Source: Pirellulales bacterium
GTDB taxonomy: Bacteria; Planctomycetota; Planctomycetia; Pirellulales; UBA1268
NCBI GenBank assembly: GCA_044376405.1
Contig: JBILKZ010000005.1
Coordinates: 1-55,035, forward strand
Length of the DNA: 55,035 bases
Direction of reading: 5' to 3'
Part shown: positions 44,681-53,551 of the stretch, piece after piece
Position numbering within the stretch: the stretch's first letter is position 1
Layout of the letters: each line of letters begins with the position of its first letter
Notes under the pieces: model-generated
Seen by the model: only the letters and a program-made list of their open reading frames with translations
What the model was told of the DNA's origin: nothing
The model's database searches: none
Translations under genes and position numbers: made by a program

Positions 44681-45913
44681 TCATGCCACGCGGGCGATGA
44701 TGCACTTGAGATACTCGCCCTCGAGGCAGCCCGCGCTCACGGGGTGATCGGGGGCGGCGCCTCGGCATTCGAGCAGCTGGATCGTGCGGCCCGATCGCTG
44801 GGCGACGCCCGCGAGCATGACGAGGAAATCCTCTCGCGACACGGCGCCCGAGCAGCTGTTGGTCACGAGGATGCCACCCGGCTCCAAGAGATCGACCGCC
44901 AGCCTGTTGATGCGGTGGTAGGCCCGCATCGCGTCGTCGAGCGAGGCACGGCTCCGCGCGAACTTCGGCGGGTCGAGGATCACCATGCCGAAATGGTCGC
45001 CAGCCGTTTTGAGGGCGGCGAGTTTCTCGAATGCGTCGGCGGTTTCGACGGCGACGTTGGCGGCACCGTTCAGGTCGGCGTTGGCTTTGGCCAATGCCGT
45101 CGCCTTCGCGCTTGAATCAACGGCCAGCACGCTCCGCGCCCCGCCGCTCACGGCGCAGGCCGTCGCGAAGCCGCCGGAATAGCAGAACATGTCGAGCACC
45201 CGGCGGCCGCGGGCAAACCTGGCAGCCGCCTGACGGTTGTCCCGCTGGTCGAGATAGAAGCCGGTCTTCTGACCTTCGGTGAGGTCAACGCCGAACTTGA
45301 GGCCATGCTCCGTCACGAAGATCGGACCCGAGGGGGCGGTTCCTCTGACGAGACGGTCGGGCAGATGCAGGCCCTCGAGCTTCGCGAGGCCGCGTTCTGC
45401 GCCACGCAGGAGGATGCCCTTCGGTGCCACGAGCGATTCGAGGGCGTCGCAGATCGTGTCGAGCCGGTGCGACATCGCCAGCGCCGTGACCTGCACGGAG
45501 AGCCATTCGCCGTAGCGGTCGACGATCAGACCGGAGAGGTCGTCCCCCTCGCTGTTGACCAAGCGGGTGGCACCGCCGACGTCGCCGAGGCCGAGCGACT
45601 GCCGCAGCGCCACTGCCGACGCGATCCGCGATTTCCAGAGGCCGTCGTCGAGGCGGGTGGCGGCATCGAAGGCGTAAAGCCGCACACGCAACTTGCTCGA
45701 CGAATTCCAGAGCCCGCGGGCCACGAACGTGCCGTCGTGGGTGGCGAGATCGACCACGTCGCCGTCAGCAGGCGTGCCATCGACGCGGAGCACCGCCGTG
45801 TCGAGCACCCAAGGATGCCGTCCGAAGAAGGGGCGGGCCCGCTTGGGCTTGAGCACCACCGTCGCCGCGGGCAGGCCGGCCGCCGCAGACGGCTGGCTGG
45901 ATGACTCAGGCAT
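44681..45913 (-). CDS. Class I SAM-dependent rRNA methyltransferase, RlmI/YccW-like (PUA-like N-terminus)
   Basis: Trimmed to ATG 45913, overlapping the upstream gene by 8 nt. VVLKPKRARPFFGRHPWVLDTAV...DVVDLATHDGTFVARGLWN...VLDMFCYSGGFA...ILDPPKFARS...AMRAYHRINRLAVDLLEPGGILVTNSCS. Confidence 0.85.
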   Translation of the reverse strand: MPESSSQPSAAAGLPAATVVLKPKRARPFFGRHPWVLDTAVLRVDGTPADGDVVDLATHDGTFVARGLWNSSSKLRVRLYAFDAATRLDDGLWKSRIASAVALRQSLGLGDVGGATRLVNSEGDDLSGLIVDRYGEWLSVQVTALAMSHRLDTICDALESLVAPKGILLRGAERGLAKLEGLHLPDRLVRGTAPSGPIFVTEHGLKFGVDLTEGQKTGFYLDQRDNRQAAARFARGRRVLDMFCYSGGFATACAVSGGARSVLAVDSSAKATALAKANADLNGAANVAVETADAFEKLAALKTAGDHFGMVILDPPKFARSRASLDDAMRAYHRINRLAVDLLEPGGILVTNSCSGAVSREDFLVMLAGVAQRSGRTIQLLECRGAAPDHPVSAGCLEGEYLKCIIARVA

Positions 45914-48434
45914 GCACGACCTGCTTGGCCGGGCCCGGCACCACGTGGGGCGTCGGCAGGGCATCGCTGCCCGGATCGGTCGTCACCTTTCGCCGACCCT
46001 CGCGGAGGGCCTTCTTCCGCTCGATCCGCAGCACGCTCCAACTGAAGACGGCGCCCAGCGGACCCGACAACAACGCCGGCATGAACACCAGATTGCCGAC
46101 CAGCGCGATGGTGAGCATCGCCAGCATCATGTGGCCGAACCGCTGGGTCGGCCCGAACGGCGAGAGCGAGAAGACCGAGAGACCGATGCCGATCACGCCC
46201 CAGCTCTGATACATCGCGCGGGCGCAGCCCTTGTAGGCGAGCATGGTCGCCTGCTTGCGGTCGAGCCCGTCGGCGATCCCCTTGCGGAACCAGAGTATGA
46301 AGTGCACGACATCGTCGACCGTCACGCCGAGCGCCACGCTCGGCGCCATCACGGTGCCGATGTCGATGAGGAGCGTGCCGGCGTCAAGCGACTTGAGCAG
46401 GGCATGGGTCCAGCCCACACCGCCAAACACCATCAGAGCGGGAAACGCAGCCGGTAACAGGAGCAACAGGCCGGCAGAAGCGGCCCTGCAGAGCACGATC
46501 ATCACGACGACGATGATCGCAAAATCGTAGATGAAGCCGATCATCAGGCCGTCGAGCAGCGAGTGCTGGGCCTTGTAGACCAGCGGTACGAGGCCGGTGT
46601 AGTCGACCGACACGCCCTTCACGCCCTCGCTGTCGAGGTCGGCGAGGATCGGGTCGATCTTCGACTGCAGGTCGCGCTTGAACAGGGCGTAGTCGACCTC
46701 CTTGGTCGCACTGACGCGGGCGCTGATCCGCCAGAGTTCCTGCCGCGTGCCATCGGGCAGTTCTGCCTCGCGGAGATAATCACCGGCGAGGAAATCCGCA
46801 CGATGGGCGGTCAGCCGCCGGTTCAGCACGCTCCGCTTGGTCCGCGAGCCGAAGCCGATGGCCCGGGCCGCGGCGCCCCCGATGCTATCGCTATCGTCAC
46901 CGACGTCGAGGCTGCGACCAAACGTGACGGTCGAGAGCGAACTGCCCACCTCGTCGAGGTCGCCGATCTTCTTCTGGATATCGCCGACGAGTTCCATTCG
47001 CTCCAGGAAGTTGAGCGGGCATGTCTGCTGGTCGATCCGCACCAGGATTTCCATCGGCACGAGCGGGCCGAGGTGCTTCTCCAGCCAGTGGTAGTCTTGG
47101 CGGATGCGGGCCTTGGAGGAGAACAGCCGCATGAGTTGCACGCTGCTCTCGACCTGGGTGAGCCCATAGCCCACGCCAGCCATCACGAGCAGACAGGTCG
47201 CCGTAACCAGGCCGTTGTGCTCTGTGATCCACTGCCCGACGCCCCACCACGGGCTCGACTCGACCGGCTTCCAGGCATTGTCACCCTCGTCCTCGGCGAG
47301 TTTGCCCAGCTTGAGCTTCGGCGGAAATAGTTCGAGGGCCGCCGGCATGAACGTGACGAGGATCAGGAAGCTGACCACGACGCCGATGGCGGAGAAAATG
47401 CCGAACATCCTGATTGGAACCAGCTCGCTCACAGCGAGAGTCGCCAGACCGATCGCCGTCGTGCCCGTCGCCAACGCGAGCGGCAGCAGCGCGTGGTGCA
47501 CCGCCCGGCCCGCAGCGCCCTCCACCACACCGGTCTCGGCGAGCTGGTCACGGTAGTAGTTGGCAAGATGGATCGCGCCGCTGGTCGTGGCCACGTAGAC
47601 CAGCGACGGCATCGTCAGCAGGATGGCGTCGACGGGATAGCCCGAGTACCAGACGACCGCGAGACTGGCGAACATGCTGTAGACGCCAGAGGCCAGCACC
47701 ATCGCCACCAGCGTCTTGCTCTTGAGGCTCCACCAGCTGACGATGAAACCGACCACCAGCGACAGCCCGAAGAGAATCGTCACGCTCGTCTGACCGGCTC
47801 GGTCGATCGACACGTTGTCGACCGGAGGGCCGCCCATGTGCACCGTCTTCTCGGGGATCCCGCACTCCCCGGCGGCAACGTCCTTGATGAGATCGATGGC
47901 CCCGTGCAGGTTGGACCGGGCGGCGTCGGACAGCGTCAGGACAAGGCAGGTCTGCCGGGCGTCGAGGTCGTCGGCGTCGCTCCCGGCGACAATCCCCTCC
48001 GCGGCCGGGCCGATGATCGCCCCGGTCAGCCGGGAGATCGCCTCCTCGCGATCGAGGTTCAGCGGCTCATCGGTCATCCGTTCGACGGCCCGGGGGCCGG
48101 TCTGGGCCGACTTAAAATAGAGGGGCCGATCGATCCGAGAGGCTTCTTCCGGAGGGGGAAGCAGTTTCTGGGCGAGCAGTTCCAGGCGGGGGTCGGCCAT
48201 CGTGCAGCCGTCCCAGCTGACCAGGATGAACTCCTCGCCCTGAAAGTTCCGCCGGAAAAAGCGGTAGGTCTGCGTCTCGGGATATTCGAGGGGCAGCCAG
48301 CCCTTCACGTCGTTGCGGTTGTTCCCCTTGGCCTTGATCGCCCCCACGACCACCAATGGCAACAGGAAGATCAGGATCGCCATGATCCAGACACTGTTCC
48401 GCTGGTAGAGATTTGTCCCGGGTTTCGACATCAT
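45906..48434 (-). CDS. MMPL/RND-superfamily transporter (two 6-TM halves with large periplasmic loops)
   Basis: 842 aa. It has an N-terminal TM, then a soluble loop, then a 5-TM bundle, and this pattern is repeated once. Overall MMPL/HpnN-like organisation by eye. Confidence 0.8.
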   Translation of the reverse strand: MMSKPGTNLYQRNSVWIMAILIFLLPLVVVGAIKAKGNNRNDVKGWLPLEYPETQTYRFFRRNFQGEEFILVSWDGCTMADPRLELLAQKLLPPPEEASRIDRPLYFKSAQTGPRAVERMTDEPLNLDREEAISRLTGAIIGPAAEGIVAGSDADDLDARQTCLVLTLSDAARSNLHGAIDLIKDVAAGECGIPEKTVHMGGPPVDNVSIDRAGQTSVTILFGLSLVVGFIVSWWSLKSKTLVAMVLASGVYSMFASLAVVWYSGYPVDAILLTMPSLVYVATTSGAIHLANYYRDQLAETGVVEGAAGRAVHHALLPLALATGTTAIGLATLAVSELVPIRMFGIFSAIGVVVSFLILVTFMPAALELFPPKLKLGKLAEDEGDNAWKPVESSPWWGVGQWITEHNGLVTATCLLVMAGVGYGLTQVESSVQLMRLFSSKARIRQDYHWLEKHLGPLVPMEILVRIDQQTCPLNFLERMELVGDIQKKIGDLDEVGSSLSTVTFGRSLDVGDDSDSIGGAAARAIGFGSRTKRSVLNRRLTAHRADFLAGDYLREAELPDGTRQELWRISARVSATKEVDYALFKRDLQSKIDPILADLDSEGVKGVSVDYTGLVPLVYKAQHSLLDGLMIGFIYDFAIIVVVMIVLCRAASAGLLLLLPAAFPALMVFGGVGWTHALLKSLDAGTLLIDIGTVMAPSVALGVTVDDVVHFILWFRKGIADGLDRKQATMLAYKGCARAMYQSWGVIGIGLSVFSLSPFGPTQRFGHMMLAMLTIALVGNLVFMPALLSGPLGAVFSWSVLRIERKKALREGRRKVTTDPGSDALPTPHVVPGPAKQVVHA

Positions 48435-48646
48435 GCCGTCCAGACAGGGACCGCCCGGGGGTGCCGGGGGTGGAATTTCCGTTCGTCAGACATTCAACCG
48501 TACAGGGGTTTTCCTGGCCAGTCCATATCGCTCGGAGGCCTCAGGGCCTGTTTTCCACATATGTTGGATGACGTAAGTGTTTCTAGGGGAAGACCTTACG
48601 CCGACAACAGCCCTTCCCCAGCCCGTACAAACCCGACAGCCCGACC

Positions 48647-50035
48647 TCAGCCTCGCACGGAGTCAGCTGCCCGGAAGCCGCACGATTTGTGGGAACCGTC
48701 GCAAAACGGCCTGGTCTGCGTATGGCCGCAGCGGCAGAGGGCAACGGCCCGCTTGCCAACGGGAAGCGGAAACGCGTTCCCGTGATGATCGGTGACCCGG
48801 AGGGACAGTGTCTCGAAACGCTCGGCGGTCGGCATTTCGACCACCAGCGGACCGTCCTCCCGGCAGCGGATCGTGAGGCTATCGGGCGGCAGGATACGTG
48901 GTCCGCTCTCAGCCTTGGAGCCTGCCTTGTCGGCTGTTCCGCCAGTTGGCCCATGGCCTGGGGCGAAGCGAGGGCCAGGGCCGCCCGGTCCAGGCGGCGG
49001 CTGTTGGAAGGTCCACCACCAGAGAGCGGCCGCTGCCGCCAGGAGCACCAGCGACACCAGCTGCGAGATCGAGAACGGCGTTCCCAGGGCGGGCGGCTCA
49101 TCAACGCGGATGGCCTCCAGAAGCAGCCGGGAAATCGGGTGAAGGGTGAGCACCAGCGCAAACACCTGACCGTCCCGCCGGGCCAGCGGGGTGGCCGAGG
49201 CCAAGCAGGCCAACGCCGCCAGGATCGCTGCATCGACCGCGGCGTAGAGTTGCGCCGGATGCACGGGCAGGCTCCACGGGCGACCGCCGTCGGCCGCCAC
49301 GGCGGGCAAGAGCCCCCGCGCGGCCTGGTCGAGCCACGGAGGGCTCTCCGGCGGAAACCGGACAGCCCAGGGTAGATCACAGGGCCCCCCGTAACAGCAG
49401 CCATTGAGGAAGCAGCCGATCCGGCCAATGGCCAGACCGACGAGCAGCCCCGGGGCAATGCAATCAGCCAGCCGCGGCAACGACAGACCCCGGCGGCTGG
49501 CAAACCGCCAGGCAGCCAGTGCCGCCGTCGGCAACGACCCAAACACCACCAGCCCGCCGGCCGCGACATTGAGCACAGCCGCAAGCGACTCCGGCCAACT
49601 CCGTCCGGCAGCGAAGAATTGATCGTGGTATTCGATCACATAGAAGAGTCTCGCGCCGACGATGCCCCACAGAAACACCTCCATGCCCAGTGCGAGGATC
49701 GTATCGGCATCGAAGCCCATGCTGCGGCCCCGCACAATCGACAGCCAGGTGCCAGCCGTCGCGGCGACCAACAGCATCGCCCCGTAGCCCCGCACCGGCA
49801 CGCCCTGGCCGTCGTCGAGCGCCGGAAGTAGCCAGAGGATCGTTGCCGCGGTGATCGCCAGCGGCGCGGCCAGTGTTTCAAGCGCCGCCCGCCACCCGTG
49901 AGCAGTGGCGGTTCGCACGAGCATCACGGCCGCCACGATTCCCCACACGGCCAAGAAGAGTCCGAAGCCAACCAGCGGCAGCGACGTTCCGCCCACGGTG
50001 ATCCGCGTCGGGATGTGAAAGAGTGTTGACAGCAT
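48647..50035 (-). CDS. lgt: Prolipoprotein diacylglyceryl transferase fused to a C-terminal CDGSH iron-sulfur domain
   Basis: Residues 1-343 are Lgt (GRIGCFLNGCCYGGPCDLPWAVRFP, PVHPAQLYAA). A Pro/Gly linker spans 344-380. Residues 381-462 contain GPLVV...CRCGHTQTRPFCDGSH (nt 48689-48736), which matches C-X-C-X2-(S/T)-X3-P-X-C-D-G-(S/A/T)-H exactly. Confidence 0.88.
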   Translation of the reverse strand: MLSTLFHIPTRITVGGTSLPLVGFGLFLAVWGIVAAVMLVRTATAHGWRAALETLAAPLAITAATILWLLPALDDGQGVPVRGYGAMLLVAATAGTWLSIVRGRSMGFDADTILALGMEVFLWGIVGARLFYVIEYHDQFFAAGRSWPESLAAVLNVAAGGLVVFGSLPTAALAAWRFASRRGLSLPRLADCIAPGLLVGLAIGRIGCFLNGCCYGGPCDLPWAVRFPPESPPWLDQAARGLLPAVAADGGRPWSLPVHPAQLYAAVDAAILAALACLASATPLARRDGQVFALVLTLHPISRLLLEAIRVDEPPALGTPFSISQLVSLVLLAAAAALWWWTFQQPPPGPGGPGPRFAPGHGPTGGTADKAGSKAESGPRILPPDSLTIRCREDGPLVVEMPTAERFETLSLRVTDHHGNAFPLPVGKRAVALCRCGHTQTRPFCDGSHKSCGFRAADSVRG

Positions 50036-50928
50036 CAGCGGGCCAGGCCTTGATCGGGTGTGCTGCGGGACTCGGAAGTGCCACGGCCGCGAAGTTCACG
50101 GTTGTCGATGAGCCGCGTCGACCCCAGCCGACCAGCCACCAGCGCCACCGCGTGCGATGCATCAGCAGTGAGTGGTTCGAGCGATTCGGGATCGGCGAGC
50201 GCCGCATAGTCGACGACGATGCCATGGGACTCCATGGTCTTTCGCATCGTCTCTTCGATCGCAGCAGCAGCGGCACCGGCAGCCCAGAGCTGCTCTGCCT
50301 GACGGAGGCACTCCGAGATCGCGGCGGCACGAGGGCGGTCGGCGGCGGAGAGATAGGCGTTCCGCGAACTCATGGCGAGACCATCCGCCTCGCGCACGGT
50401 GGGGCAGACGACGATCGCGATTGGCAGGCCGAGGTCGCGCACCATCCGTCTGACGACGAGCGTCTGCTGCCAATCCTTGGCGCCGAAGTAGGCAGCGTCG
50501 GCCGGCACGGCCTGGAAGAGCTTGCAGACCACTGTTGCCACGCCGTCGAAATGTCCCGGCCGCCGCTCCCCTTCAAACCGCACCGCCGGCCCACCCACGA
50601 CGATCCGCGTGGCGTCTCCAGGCGGATAGACGGCCGATACCTCCGGCGCGTAGATCCACCTCACGCCGTGCGGCGCGAGCTGCGCCGTGTCGGCGGCGAG
50701 CGTCCGCGGATACCGAGCGAAATCCTCCTGCGGACCAAACTGCGTCGGATTCACGAAGATCGAGACGGCAATGTCATCGCAGTCGCGAGCCGCCCGGGTC
50801 ACGAGGCTCACGTGGCCCGCGTGCAACGCTCCCATCGTGGGCACGAATCCCACCCGTCGACCGGCGGCCCGCGCCTCGACGACGAGCGCCCGCATGCGAT
50901 CGGGATCGTGCACGATCTGCTGCATCAC
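50035..50928 (-). CDS. panC: Pantoate--beta-alanine ligase
   Basis: RVGFVPTMGALHAGHVSLV...VSIFVNPTQFGP.EDF..YPR... 297 aa. The stop shares 1 nt with the lgt start. Confidence 0.93.
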   Translation of the reverse strand: MMQQIVHDPDRMRALVVEARAAGRRVGFVPTMGALHAGHVSLVTRAARDCDDIAVSIFVNPTQFGPQEDFARYPRTLAADTAQLAPHGVRWIYAPEVSAVYPPGDATRIVVGGPAVRFEGERRPGHFDGVATVVCKLFQAVPADAAYFGAKDWQQTLVVRRMVRDLGLPIAIVVCPTVREADGLAMSSRNAYLSAADRPRAAAISECLRQAEQLWAAGAAAAAIEETMRKTMESHGIVVDYAALADPESLEPLTADASHAVALVAGRLGSTRLIDNRELRGRGTSESRSTPDQGLAR

Positions 50929-52040
50929 GCCATCGCCTCGACGACGGCCACTGCTTCCTGCACCGCCTGATCGAAATCCCCGGCAGCGATCGTCACCACG
51001 GCCCGTGGCCCAGCCGCGGCACTGCTCTCGGAACAGCGGATCTCGGAGGCGATCCGTTCCTGCAGTCGCAGCAGCCTGACGACCGCTTCGTCCGTTGCCG
51101 CGCCCACCGCCCTGCCCGCTCGCCGGCCGGCGCCGACGCCGGCGGGTTCAGCCGGCTGCCGGTCACGCACGGCGATCTTCGCCTCGAGCAGCTCGGGGGA
51201 GGCCACCAGCAGGATGGCGACGTGTGGCAGTACGGTTTGCGCCGCCATCCGCGTGAAGTGACTCTCAAAGCCACCCAGTGACTCTGCCGGCAAGCTATCG
51301 ACCGCCGCCAGTCGCACGGTGTGCAACCAGTAGTCAGTGACGGTGCCGTGTGGATCCGGCGACCACCGCTTCGCGTGCAGGGGCTGCGCACAGGCCTCGA
51401 CCGCGTGCCGCCAGGCCAGATCGCCCGCGGCTGCATCCAGTCCCGTCGCCCTGCCACCGACGACGGCGTATTCCGGCGGCGCCGAGACCAGCCGCGCGAG
51501 CGTGGCATGGGCCACTGCGGCCGCGACCTCGGCCGCCCCCGCGCCCGGCACGCCGATCACCGCCACGTGCGGGTGCGGCGACGAGATGCTTTCGAGCAGA
51601 TCCTCGAGCGTACAGGCGGCCAACGGGTGCACGAGATCCGGGGCGATTTCCACGCACGGCTCGAGCACGAACCGCCGGGTGACCATCCGCGGGTGCGGCA
51701 ACGTCAGCGTTGCAGTATCGAGGACGATCTTGTCGTAGAGCAGCAGGTCGAGGTCCACCGTCCGCGGGCCCCACCGCTCGCCGCGTTCGCGATCGAGCGT
51801 GTTCTCCACCGCCGCGAGCATGCCAAGCACATCGTGCGGAGCCAGATCGGTCTCGAGCAGGCACGCGCTGTTGAGAAAAACACCTTGCCCGGGCGGACCG
51901 CCAATCGGTCGGGTGTCGCGGTAGCGGCTCACGCTCACGAGCGTGACGCCCGGCATGAACCGCAGCAACTCCATCGCTCGATCGAGATACTCACGCCGTT
52001 TTCCGACGTTCGACCCGCAACCGACAAGGCATCGTGCCAT
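50925..52040 (-). CDS. folK: HPPK (2-amino-4-hydroxy-6-hydroxymethyldihydropteridine diphosphokinase) fused to a deoxynucleoside-kinase-like domain with degenerate P-loop
   Basis: N-terminal ~160 aa: GSNVGKRREYLDRAMELL...GERWGPRTVDLDLLLYD...LTLPHPRMVTRRFVLEP. The C-terminal ~200 aa begins VAVIGVPGAGAAEV, where a Walker A would have GKT/S. The stop overlaps the panC start in ATGA. Confidence 0.8.
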   Translation of the reverse strand: MARCLVGCGSNVGKRREYLDRAMELLRFMPGVTLVSVSRYRDTRPIGGPPGQGVFLNSACLLETDLAPHDVLGMLAAVENTLDRERGERWGPRTVDLDLLLYDKIVLDTATLTLPHPRMVTRRFVLEPCVEIAPDLVHPLAACTLEDLLESISSPHPHVAVIGVPGAGAAEVAAAVAHATLARLVSAPPEYAVVGGRATGLDAAAGDLAWRHAVEACAQPLHAKRWSPDPHGTVTDYWLHTVRLAAVDSLPAESLGGFESHFTRMAAQTVLPHVAILLVASPELLEAKIAVRDRQPAEPAGVGAGRRAGRAVGAATDEAVVRLLRLQERIASEIRCSESSAAAGPRAVVTIAAGDFDQAVQEAVAVVEAMA

Positions 52041-52555
52041 AGCGTTTCACACCAGAGCGCTTCTACCCGGCGGGCTTCTGCCCAGCGGCCAAGCACCCCG
52101 ATTCTATCCGCCGGCCACCCTCCAGGATCAACAACGCCGCACGAACCTCCCGCAAAAGGCTGGAAAACCAGCCAGACAAACCGTTCAATCATCGCTCGAA
52201 AACCGGGGGGACATCCAGGCCACGACCAAAGTCGCCGACTGTCGCTCCCTCCAGTCGTCGCCCCCGAAATTTCCGAGACGATTGTTCGTCTGTGTTCGTC
52301 AGTGTTGGTTCAGGTGACTCAAGGCCCAGACGCCTCAAGGCCGCGTTCGCGTGACACCCATGTCTGCGAGTCGCGATCACCTAACGGGGGTCATTCTGTG
52401 AACCCCTTCGAAGATGTCAAGGACGTTCCATCGCGCACGACGTGCGCGCCGACTCACTCACACAAAACCTCCGCAGAAGAAAGCCGTTCCGCACCAAAAA
52501 AAAATTTGCCAGCAGTGCAAGCATTGTCGAAACGGATTCGGGATGGTGTGCTTAC

Positions 52556-53551
52556 ATGACGAAGAACATCGCAAACGACGGCGTTGACTGCATCCGACCA
52601 CGCATGGCGCATCATCTCATGGTCCATTTTTCTTCCCACGACGACAATGCATCGGCCGCCGAGAGACGGCTGTCCCGCGATTCCCGACGCGGGCTTGACG
52701 AACCGCTGCCCGCAGCGCTGTTGCCGGATGGATTGCCACTCGGAGAGCCGCTTCCGGATCCGTTGTCCGACGCTGCGGATACCGACCCACTGGCAGACAC
52801 GCCGGAAAATGTCCCCACCTCGGGCGAGTCGTATTGGCAACTCTCCCGCACGCCGCTCACGAGCCTTGTTTTTACGCTCCCATTGGTCCTGGCCTACGAG
52901 GGTGGCGTGCTGCTCCTTGGCCGTGGATCGCCCCGCAATGGCGCCGATGTCTGGCTCCGCCACCTGCTGGATGCCCTGGGATTCGGCCAGTATTTCCTCC
53001 TGCCACTGCTCACCGTTGTGGGGCTGTTGGCATGGCAGTATCTCGCGCACGACCGCTGGAGAGTGAGCCTGGCCGCGTTGCCGGGCATGGCGGCCGAATG
53101 CACGCTCTGGGCGGTCGTGCTCGTCGGCATCGGGCGGCTGCAGCAGAGCCTCTGGCCGTTCGATCCGGGCCTCCTCGCGTGGGAATACCTGCAACTGCAC
53201 GGCGATGCCGGATTCGGCTGGCATGCGCTGCTGGCCAGACTCGTCGGCTTCTGCGGCGCAGGCCTCTACGAGGAAGTGCTGTTCCGGCTCCTCATGCTCC
53301 CCATCGCCGTGTGGGCATTCGAGCGACTGGGGTGCTCGACGCTGGTGGCCGGATTCTGGGCGCTGGTGCTGTCGAGTCTGCTCTTCAGCGGCGCACACTA
53401 CATCGGCCCGCTCGGCGACTCGTTCACACTCTACAGTTTCACGTTCCGCACCGTGGCGGGCCTGTTTTTCGCGCTCCTGTTCCTGCTCCGCGGCTTCGGC
53501 ATCGCCGCAGGCACTCATTTTTTCTACGACCTCCTGGTCGGGCTGGTGTAG
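52556..53551 (+). CDS. CPBP (CAAX/Abi) family intramembrane metalloprotease
   Basis: Motifs GLYEEVLFRLL, LLFSGAHY and GTHFFYDLL are present. The protein has an acidic Pro/Leu-rich N-terminal tail. The start is uncertain (52556 or 52604). Confidence 0.75.
   Translation: MTKNIANDGVDCIRPRMAHHLMVHFSSHDDNASAAERRLSRDSRRGLDEPLPAALLPDGLPLGEPLPDPLSDAADTDPLADTPENVPTSGESYWQLSRTPLTSLVFTLPLVLAYEGGVLLLGRGSPRNGADVWLRHLLDALGFGQYFLLPLLTVVGLLAWQYLAHDRWRVSLAALPGMAAECTLWAVVLVGIGRLQQSLWPFDPGLLAWEYLQLHGDAGFGWHALLARLVGFCGAGLYEEVLFRLLMLPIAVWAFERLGCSTLVAGFWALVLSSLLFSGAHYIGPLGDSFTLYSFTFRTVAGLFFALLFLLRGFGIAAGTHFFYDLLVGLV

Follow-up and report, generated by a model that had tools for sequence, protein, structure and literature searches.

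The window is the whole stretch of DNA that was analyzed, 55,035 nucleotides (nt) of a Pirellulales bacterium genome (GenBank assembly GCA_044376405.1, contig JBILKZ010000005.1). On its minus strand, an open reading frame (ORF) at 48647..50035 starts with ATG and encodes 462 amino acids followed by a stop codon (48647-48649). An earlier model-made interpretation of the letters (the sequence-only reading) had claimed that this ORF, here called lgt::cdgsh, fuses a prolipoprotein diacylglyceryl transferase (Lgt) to a CDGSH domain of the kind that holds a [2Fe-2S] cluster. Both domains were found in the ORF above their Pfam cut-offs, PF01790 LGT at residues 79-341 (E 4.7e-51, 173.9 bits, cut-off 24.9, model positions 9-240 of 240) and PF09360 zf-CDGSH at residues 394-450 (E 2.5e-12, 47.3 bits, cut-off 29.5). 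From the N-terminus, and all on the minus strand, the protein can be divided into residues 1-78 (49802..50035), delimited by hydrophobicity, the AlphaFold2 (AF2) model and an alignment to Escherichia coli Lgt (PDB 5AZB) that starts at residue 79; an Lgt-family core at residues 79-341 (49013..49801), identified by Pfam, the same alignment and Foldseek; a Pro/Gly-rich linker at residues 343-380 (48896..49009), recognized from conservation, substitution rates, model confidence and DNA comparison; and a predicted cytoplasmic CDGSH domain at residues 381-462 (48650..48895), recognized from PF09360, matches to PDB entries 3TBO and 3TBM, and AF2 with Foldseek.

The fusion protein was searched against ~5.8 billion proteins, and at least 75 full-length homologous clusters (P0001-P0075, 69–95% identity) were recovered from ENA, JGI, NCBI and Logan, with both Pfam domains and an intact CDGSH motif in 75/75. 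The fusion sequence was found in at least 24 lake-water metagenome runs. The sequence-only reading had asked for a check of the linker in read-level data; Logan contigs from four separate, independently assembled lake metagenomes crossed it with 0 gaps. Two of these lake contigs are identical to the window over 48500-49069, and one represents a diverged strain with 11 substitutions and no indel over 48755-49820. Lake metatranscriptome contigs of a 92–95% similar strain span the linker gap-free and reach into both the CDGSH and the Lgt parts, which is weak evidence that the fusion is transcribed, as DNA carry-over could also give such contigs. Among the database entries, P0077 is 91% identical as far as a WWW run, after which its frame is shifted (VVVV...) across the whole CDGSH region, and it is a frameshifted copy or a sequencing error. 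The C-terminus of P0079 is unrelated after residue ~330, and this entry may come from a chimeric contig.

Conservation among the fused sequences falls into three tiers, with values of 0.8–0.97 for the Lgt core, 0.19–0.38 for the length-variable linker and 0.69–0.86 for the CDGSH region. A codon comparison of the window gene with the two fused genes from metagenome-assembled genomes (MAGs) gave ratios of nonsynonymous to synonymous substitution rates (dN/dS) of 0.055–0.074 for the Lgt core, 0.078–0.087 for the CDGSH domain and 0.26–0.69 for the linker. The low dN/dS of the Lgt core and the CDGSH domain indicates that both modules have been under strong purifying selection while fused, and lgt::cdgsh is one real, selected gene.

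The CDGSH motif CRCGHTQTRPFCDGSH occupies residues 434-449 (48689..48736, read from 48736 to 48689), exactly where the sequence-only reading had placed it. It reads C434-R-C436-GHTQTRPF-C445-DGS-H449 and is followed by Lys450, giving a ligand pattern of three Cys and one His, and the string L433-CRCGHTQTRPFCDGSH-449 matches the 17-residue motif ΦCXCXX(S/T)XXXPΦCDG(S/T/A)H at all positions, so the residue-for-residue fit that had been claimed holds. None of C434, C436, C445 and H449 varies among the 76 fused sequences, nor in an alignment of 54 standalone plus fused sequences. All residues for holding a [2Fe-2S] cluster are thus kept in the domain, and we infer from the sequence that it binds one. 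A P motif as defined in PMC3174974 (GPΦXΦ, with its lid proline) is present as G395-P396-L397-V398-V399 (48839..48853). All 76 fused sequences have the same residues at 395-398, and G395 and P396 are invariant among standalone CDGSH homologues too. The distance from the P motif to the CDGSH motif downstream of it is 35 residues, and the 13 residues that follow H449 contain no GPΦXΦ. An extra invariant cysteine, C391 (48863-48865), sits in an R-C-R strand preceding the P motif; it is not a cluster ligand, and it is kept in both the fused and the standalone homologues.

When the CDGSH part was compared with the PDB, the best matches were two prokaryotic CISDs with a single motif, 3TBO (E 5.7e-10) and 3TBM (E 1.2e-8), with mitoNEET and CISD2 chains at only ~4e-3. 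Judging by its 60-residue chain length, 3TBO is probably the type 3 construct of Lin et al. A domain-only AF2 model placed strands at domain residues 11-14, 20-23 and 53-56, preceding the motif, and its predicted local distance difference test score (pLDDT) of 72.5 is moderate, as expected for a strand-swapped dimer modelled singly. The sole significant Foldseek match of this model was 3TBM, a 'type 4 CDGSH' (probability 1.0, TM-score 0.55 normalized to the target, 38% identity). Because the P motif and strands stand N-terminal of a single motif, Lys follows the His ligand and 3TBM is the top structural match, sequence and model together assign the domain to the type 4, prokaryote-specific CISD proteins. 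More than 90% of type 4 domains carry Lys or Arg after the His ligand, and Planctomycetes are named as a phylum that prefers this type (Lin et al. 2011, PMC3174974). The sequence-only reading had called the domain mitoNEET-type (type 1), which we rejected given the N-terminal position of the P motif, its absence after H449 and a mitoNEET match of only ~4e-3.

The closest known system is RsCISD of Ralstonia solanacearum (3TBM, type 4; PMC3174974), which shares the single CDGSH motif with four ligands, the N-terminal P motif and strands, and the Lys after His. Known type 4 CISDs are small and soluble, however, whereas the domain in the window is the C-terminus of a polytopic membrane enzyme, carries the additional C391 and is predicted, rather than known, to bind a cluster. 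MitoNEET (CISD1) has the same cluster motif and is likewise membrane-tethered, with a CDGSH domain that faces the cytoplasm after a transmembrane (TM) segment (PMC3174974), but the similarity to it is much weaker (~4e-3 vs 1e-8 to 6e-10) and its anchor is a single helix, as opposed to a nine-TM enzyme here.

The Lgt module was examined against E. coli Lgt in the same way. A phmmer alignment to 5AZB (E 2e-11) covers residues 79-347 of the window protein and 22-287 of E. coli Lgt, and Foldseek recovered the fold of the seven-TM body (E 2.3e-8, probability 1.0, target-normalized TM-score 0.67, 27% identity). The PF01790 core corresponds to the seven TM helices of the E. coli enzyme, and most TM helices in the full-length AF2 model have a pLDDT of ~80–95. 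The E. coli residues Y26, R143, G154, R239, E243 and R246 are kept as Y84, R205, G216, R303, E307 and R310, which are invariant in 66 relatives. Three others are replaced: H103 of HGGL by F165 (FGSL), N146 by C208 and E151 by C213, so that the Lgt signature (49388..49426) reads GRIGCFLNGCCYG, or G204-RIGCFLNGCCY-G216, as opposed to G142-RLGNFINGELW-G154 in E. coli. The NCBIfam equivalog cut-offs were missed (TIGR00544, 84.7 vs 118.9; best match NF000778, 103.6 vs 334), and NCBI names some members only 'family protein'. The earlier description of a complete Lgt therefore stands at the level of family and fold (PF01790, 5AZB) and falls short at the equivalog cut-offs and at the three replaced residues.

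Mutants of H103 and E151 in E. coli Lgt, including E151A and E151Q, were inactive in one study (Mao et al. 2016, PMC4728403). A 2026 mBio study found Y26, H103, R143, N146, G154 and R239 to be absolutely required, and in disagreement with the former found that E151A complements (PMC13251419). The same study lists natural replacements in some or distant Lgts, with H103 changed to Tyr, Trp or Phe, N146 to Cys, and E151 to Cys or Asp. Since these are the replacements seen in the window, they are no bar to Lgt membership, and by sequence and model the module is a divergent variant of the Lgt family. The wider planctomycete subfamily has GRxGCxxxGCCxG instead of GRLGNFINGELWG and FGSL instead of HGGL (49388-49426 and 49540-49551, minus strand, in the window), with C192 invariant and C219 nearly so. 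This Cys variant is invariant in fused and unfused sister sequences and was found in 143/149 of the nearest 50%-identity representatives (P0241-P0389) and in nearly all of 79 genome loci from Pirellulales, Isosphaeraceae, Schlesneria and Brocadiaceae, the majority of them lacking a cdgsh gene in the vicinity. A tie between the Cys cluster and the iron-sulfur (Fe-S) domain was rejected as the main explanation, as the variant is general in the subfamily regardless of CDGSH. No second Lgt-like (PF01790) motif was found in the 55-kb window, which is a weak guide to the whole genome, and the window holds no second CDGSH and no anti-sigma remnant.

Residues 1-78 form an arm-1-like beta-hairpin and two additional predicted TM helices (24-46 and 48-73) that are absent from E. 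coli Lgt, giving nine TM helices in the AF2 model of the Lgt module as opposed to seven. Ahead of helix 3, the string VPVRGYG looks like a repeat of the pre-TM1 element. Beyond family, fold and the six kept residues, then, the window protein differs from the E. coli enzyme (5AZB/5AZC; Mao et al. 2016, PMC4728403) in the added helices, FGSL, two Cys swaps and a C-terminal Fe-S domain. The C-terminal extension begins with the linker, ~38 Pro/Gly-rich residues with gap fractions of 0.22–0.38. It includes QQPPPGPGGPGPRFAPGHGPTGG (residues 344-366), the string that the sequence-only reading had picked out, and it is predicted to be disordered (pLDDT below 50 in the full-length model). Mycobacterium tuberculosis Lgt also has a long Pro-rich cytoplasmic C-terminal tail (PMC13251419; NF009611 is a 476-aa model), but the extension in the window ends in a recognizable cofactor-binding domain.

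Predicted topology places the N-terminus of the protein outside and the C-terminus inside. The aligned region spans TM1 to TM7 of E. coli Lgt and the two added helices preserve its orientation, which would put the CDGSH domain in the cytoplasm, as the sequence-only reading had wanted confirmed. Loop charges (K+R/D+E) are 7/3 for the predicted inside and 7/9 for the outside, and no hydrophobic segment was found after residue 343 (maximum Kyte-Doolittle 19-mer 0.44). A cytoplasmic site suits Fe-S cluster insertion. The catalytic cavity of Lgt opens to the periplasmic leaflet (PMC4728403), and the predicted cluster and the active site would therefore lie across the membrane from each other. Type 4 CISDs are intertwined homodimers (PMC3174974), so the fusion is expected to link two Lgt chains.

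Outside the fused proteins, the closest relatives of the CDGSH part are standalone proteins of 78–123 amino acids from Planctomycetia and Pirellulales metagenomes. The search with the CDGSH part alone listed only standalone proteins and none of the fused, and gives no basis for ruling out independent fusions. We examined nine loci, each centred on an lgt that is not fused or on a cdgsh that stands alone (L001, L003, L083-L089), and 9/9 were ordered as the window is: a Rce1-like gene on the opposite strand, then folK-panC-lgt-X-cdgsh-MMPL-PUA/S-adenosylmethionine (SAM) methyltransferase, with X standing for whatever lies between lgt and cdgsh. Every relative sampled has lgt and cdgsh as two distinct genes of one locus, and the gap from cdgsh to the MMPL gene is ~180–210 nt in the nine loci and the window, whatever stands upstream.

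The content of X takes several forms. In four loci there is nothing, and the cdgsh ATG overlaps the lgt TGA by 4 nt as ATGA (L001, L003, L087, L088). In others X is an ORF of 85–140 amino acids with one TM helix (L083, 3324-3629; L084, 4747-5004; and L007, L013 and L022 from a genome scan) or an ORF of 251 amino acids (L009, 2953-3708; L015, 5069-5824). In the remaining form X is a pair of genes, an extracytoplasmic function (ECF) sigma factor with standard Sigma70_r2/r4 domains and a single-pass protein of 332–553 amino acids (L085, L086, L089, L017, L020, L026, L032, L047), whose N-terminus is of the zf-HC2 anti-sigma type and scores above the Pfam cut-off in L032 and L047. The 251-aa and 85–140-aa ORFs are homologous to the middle of the anti-sigma, sharing a conserved EWRRLEAERIAEE-like motif followed by a TM helix (alignment A2), and the 251-aa form additionally keeps part of the outer domain. 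The minimal piece of these remnants, the EWRRLEAERIAEE-like cytoplasmic motif and the TM helix, is retained in several lineages, and this suggests that the retained anti-sigma remnant does a job itself, perhaps by partnering the CDGSH protein at the membrane. The cassette is otherwise a standard ECF sigma and single-pass anti-sigma pair with a zf-HC2-like N-terminus, found next to lgt in the relatives; its third member is a translationally coupled CDGSH gene, for which no literature precedent was found, and the window has lost both sigma and anti-sigma. Where genes were called, at nine loci, there is a 4-nt overlap between cdgsh and the stop of the gene before it, which in L085, L086 and L089 is the anti-sigma gene. 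In most relatives cdgsh is thus translationally coupled to a membrane protein, whether Lgt, anti-sigma or a one-helix remnant, and the fusion is the extreme form of this coupling.

A neighbour-joining (NJ) tree built on the Lgt module groups all 76 fused sequences in a single clade that contains no unfused sequence and is nested among unfused ones; the fusion has a single origin, among uncultured freshwater Pirellulales. Fused proteins make up 1/150 of the nearest 50%-identity representatives (the best 150 of 14,022) and 2/79 of the species-representative loci. The two fused MAGs are a Lake Pavin Planctomycetia (LacPavin_0419_WC53_MAG_65_8, with a 95% identical protein) and a Lake Mendota Pirellulales (the bin of L005). 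When the genome loci were placed in an NJ tree, those with a small remnant fell beside the fused clade, while sigma/anti-sigma loci were found both basally in the cdgsh-linked clade and in more distant MAGs labelled Planctomycetaceae. The organism labels that NCBI gives to several MAG contigs look unreliable. L006, L015, L017, L018 and L023 show Pirellulales-type folK-panC-lgt...cdgsh synteny and 58–71% identity to the window protein while being labelled 'Candidatus Kuenenia sp./stuttgartiensis' or 'uncultured Chitinophagaceae', and these records seem to have been mis-binned or mislabelled.

As the relatives show the cassette whole, cut down or gone, the most economical and most likely origin of the fusion is the stepwise decay of a sigma/anti-sigma cassette between lgt and cdgsh, of which the fused gene is the retained end product. 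Our overall reading, to which we give a probability of roughly 0.55, is that lgt::cdgsh consists of two independent modules whose fusion by cassette decay tethers an Fe-S module to the membrane. On this account cdgsh would originally have been the last gene of an ECF sigma/zf-HC2 anti-sigma/CDGSH cassette between lgt and the MMPL gene, and in one lineage the loss of the cassette would have left it in frame with lgt. The Lgt module would lipidate prolipoproteins at the outer leaflet, while the CDGSH part would dimerize as other type 4 CISDs do and, by analogy with studied CISDs, might act at the inner membrane face in a redox- or iron-responsive way or by transferring electrons or clusters. What the fusion would supply is a membrane tether and fixed co-expression, with the Lgt anchor taking the place of the single-pass anti-sigma partner in parallel to the TM anchor of mitoNEET. 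The ancestral coupling to an anti-sigma suggests a signalling role for the CDGSH protein, and since it always stands before the MMPL gene, it may also be connected with that transporter. A loose coupling to Lgt agrees with an operon that already joins the unrelated folK, panC and lgt, and with a Cys-variant Lgt that mostly lacks a neighbouring cdgsh.

Several points weigh against this reading. The NJ trees carry no support values, and decay rather than repeated insertion rests on them and on parsimony. When the linker DNA was compared with the junctions and remnant ORFs of the relatives, similarity ended at residues ~341-347 and resumed at ~376-388, and the linker matched nothing, so that a deletion and a frameshift origin are indistinguishable and the fusing mutation is irrecoverable. 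Structural support is limited, as the CDGSH part of the full-length AF2 model has a pLDDT below 60 and is uninformative on its docking to Lgt. The fused state has been kept over ~30% protein divergence, which is also compatible with a functional interaction with Lgt, and obligate type 4 dimerization would join two Lgt molecules in a way that may be relevant to catalysis. The lgt-cdgsh pairs of the distant Pirellulaceae L054 and L060 make the pairing older and more persistent than pure accident suggests.

The sequence-only reading had taken the fusion to imply redox or iron regulation of lipoprotein lipidation, with the state of the cluster altering the conformation or dimerization of the tethered domain and so switching Lgt activity. 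We consider this unlikely. The fusion has been retained with its domain under strong purifying selection, translationally coupled lgt-cdgsh adjacency recurs in many lineages, including the distant Pirellulaceae, and the intertwined type 4 dimer would pair Lgt molecules (PMC3174974). However, two or more genes part lgt from cdgsh in many relatives, where cdgsh is coupled to the anti-sigma instead, and most planctomycete Lgt homologues of the same subfamily, divergent as they are, have no cdgsh nearby. The linker is long and variable with relaxed constraint, the Lgt cavity faces the periplasmic leaflet (PMC4728403) while the CDGSH domain is predicted to be cytoplasmic, and the operon couples unrelated genes in any case. 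Since the relatives show the fusion as the end of cassette loss, it is not evidence of redox-controlled lipidation, and direct control over Lgt is probably absent. A stricter version, in which the CDGSH domain is a true regulatory sensor whose cluster is lost or oxidized under oxidative stress or iron limitation, shifting Lgt dimerization and throttling the first step of lipoprotein maturation, seems doubtful to us; on that view, the ATGA-overlapping lgt-cdgsh pairs of related Pirellulales would represent this switch split over two proteins. In a related and novel proposal, this clade of type 4 CDGSH proteins may have started out as an Fe-S co-sensor of an ECF sigma/anti-sigma switch.

It is also conceivable, though we rate it as rather improbable, that the CDGSH protein serves the downstream MMPL transporter or the sigma regulon controlling it, with a purely positional link to Lgt. 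In its favour, cdgsh is followed by the MMPL and methyltransferase genes in the nine loci and the window whatever lies upstream, and no terminator-like site was seen in the gap of the window. Yet cdgsh neither overlaps nor is fused to the MMPL gene in any examined locus, and conserved order is weak evidence in an operon of unrelated genes. MMPL/RND transporters are not known to require Fe-S. That the 'Lgt' module is instead a non-housekeeping paralogue with thiol chemistry (C192, C208, C213, C214) in need of an Fe-S redox partner is very unlikely. The replacement of H103, N146 and E151, two of which (H103 and N146) fail to complement in E. coli when mutated, the shortfall against TIGR00544 and the other equivalog cut-offs, and the bare 'family protein' names would all fit, but Y26, R143, G154, R239 and E243 are kept and the replacements occur naturally in distant Lgts (PMC13251419). 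The Cys variant is moreover shared by the 143 representatives noted above, most of them lacking CDGSH, and its residues lie near the periplasmic side, across from the CDGSH domain; the window holds no second lgt, for what a single window can tell of the genome. An assembly or sequencing artefact, in which a frameshift error merged two overlapping genes, is effectively refuted. Relatives do have a 4-nt overlap at which a 1-nt error could merge the frames, and P0077 is visibly frameshifted, but at least 75 independent clusters from several assemblers, gap-free contigs from four runs, the same open frame in two species-representative MAGs from different lakes and the monophyly of the fused clade all stand against it.

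Fusions of bacterial CDGSH domains to other proteins have precedents. Type 5 joins tandem CISDs to a glutamate synthase FMN domain, type 7 joins DUF1271/Fer4_19 to a type 4-like CISD, and associations with Ferritin-like and Rieske_2 domains are known (PMC3174974, PMC5859297), but all listed partners are soluble redox or iron proteins, and Lgt is not among the partners in these two surveys. A full-text literature search for CDGSH together with diacylglyceryl transferase, anti-sigma or Planctomycetes returned no relevant paper beyond the surveys. One fused homologue carries the automatic JGI product name 'prolipoprotein diacylglyceryltransferase/CDGSH-type Zn-finger protein', so the combination is already noted in annotation, and the fusion is confined to a narrow clade rather than widespread. 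With that said, the architecture is new, made from two known domains and restricted to uncultured bacteria, and it is the first Lgt with a recognizable cofactor domain that could be found.

The function of bacterial CDGSH proteins has been described as 'yet-to-be-understood' (Lin et al., PMC3174974), and at this locus a single orthologous domain occurs in three natural arrangements: coupled with an ECF anti-sigma, coupled with Lgt, or joined to Lgt in one protein. Apart from the direct lgt-cdgsh pairs, each arrangement has the domain coupled or fused to a partner embedded in the membrane. This comparative series is more informative than the fusion itself, and it provides a lead that the CDGSH protein acts at the inner membrane face, possibly as an Fe-S sensor for sigma-factor signalling. 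A fusion that arose by stepwise decay of an intervening cassette is also a warning against reading every gene fusion as shared function. If it were true that the fusion regulates Lgt, a pathway that most Gram-negative bacteria cannot do without would gain a previously unknown point of control. Attention is further drawn to the large planctomycete Lgt subfamily with Cys at N146 and E151 of the E. coli signature, in which the chemistry or lipid donor is possibly altered.

The neighbouring genes in the window were identified by profile matches and synteny. Upstream of lgt::cdgsh on the same strand are panC (pantoate-beta-alanine ligase, 50035..50928) and folK (50925..52040), both assigned by profile matches, and the overlap coupling of folK-panC-lgt claimed by the sequence-only reading is present, with a 1-nt TGATG overlap of the panC stop and lgt start and a 4-nt GTGATG overlap of the folK stop and panC start, the latter using a GTG start. 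The same reading had lgt::cdgsh as the last gene of this operon, which is probably wrong, since genes for an MMPL/RND-type membrane transporter (45906..48434, minus strand; profile matches and synteny) and a PUA/SAM-dependent methyltransferase (44681..45964, minus strand), with which the conserved syntenic block ends, come next in the same orientation in all relatives, and the gap shows no terminator-like site. The MMPL gene begins 212 nt downstream of the fusion ORF, and a scan of this gap for promoters and terminators came up empty. The longest methyltransferase ORF shares 59 nt with the 3′ end of the MMPL gene; the overlap is only 8 nt in relatives, so the true start is probably further downstream. 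The folK product is 371 amino acids long, with an HPPK domain at residues 1-134 and a C-terminal extension of ~237 amino acids that matches no Pfam family (the best, AAA_33, is sub-threshold at E 0.017), and the extended length is kept at 348–376 amino acids in the syntenic relatives L003 and L083-L089. Upstream of folK on the plus strand, a divergently oriented gene at 52442-53551 encodes a Rce1-like/CPBP intramembrane protease (PF02517, E 1.5e-8), and the same arrangement is seen in L003, L084, L087 and L088.

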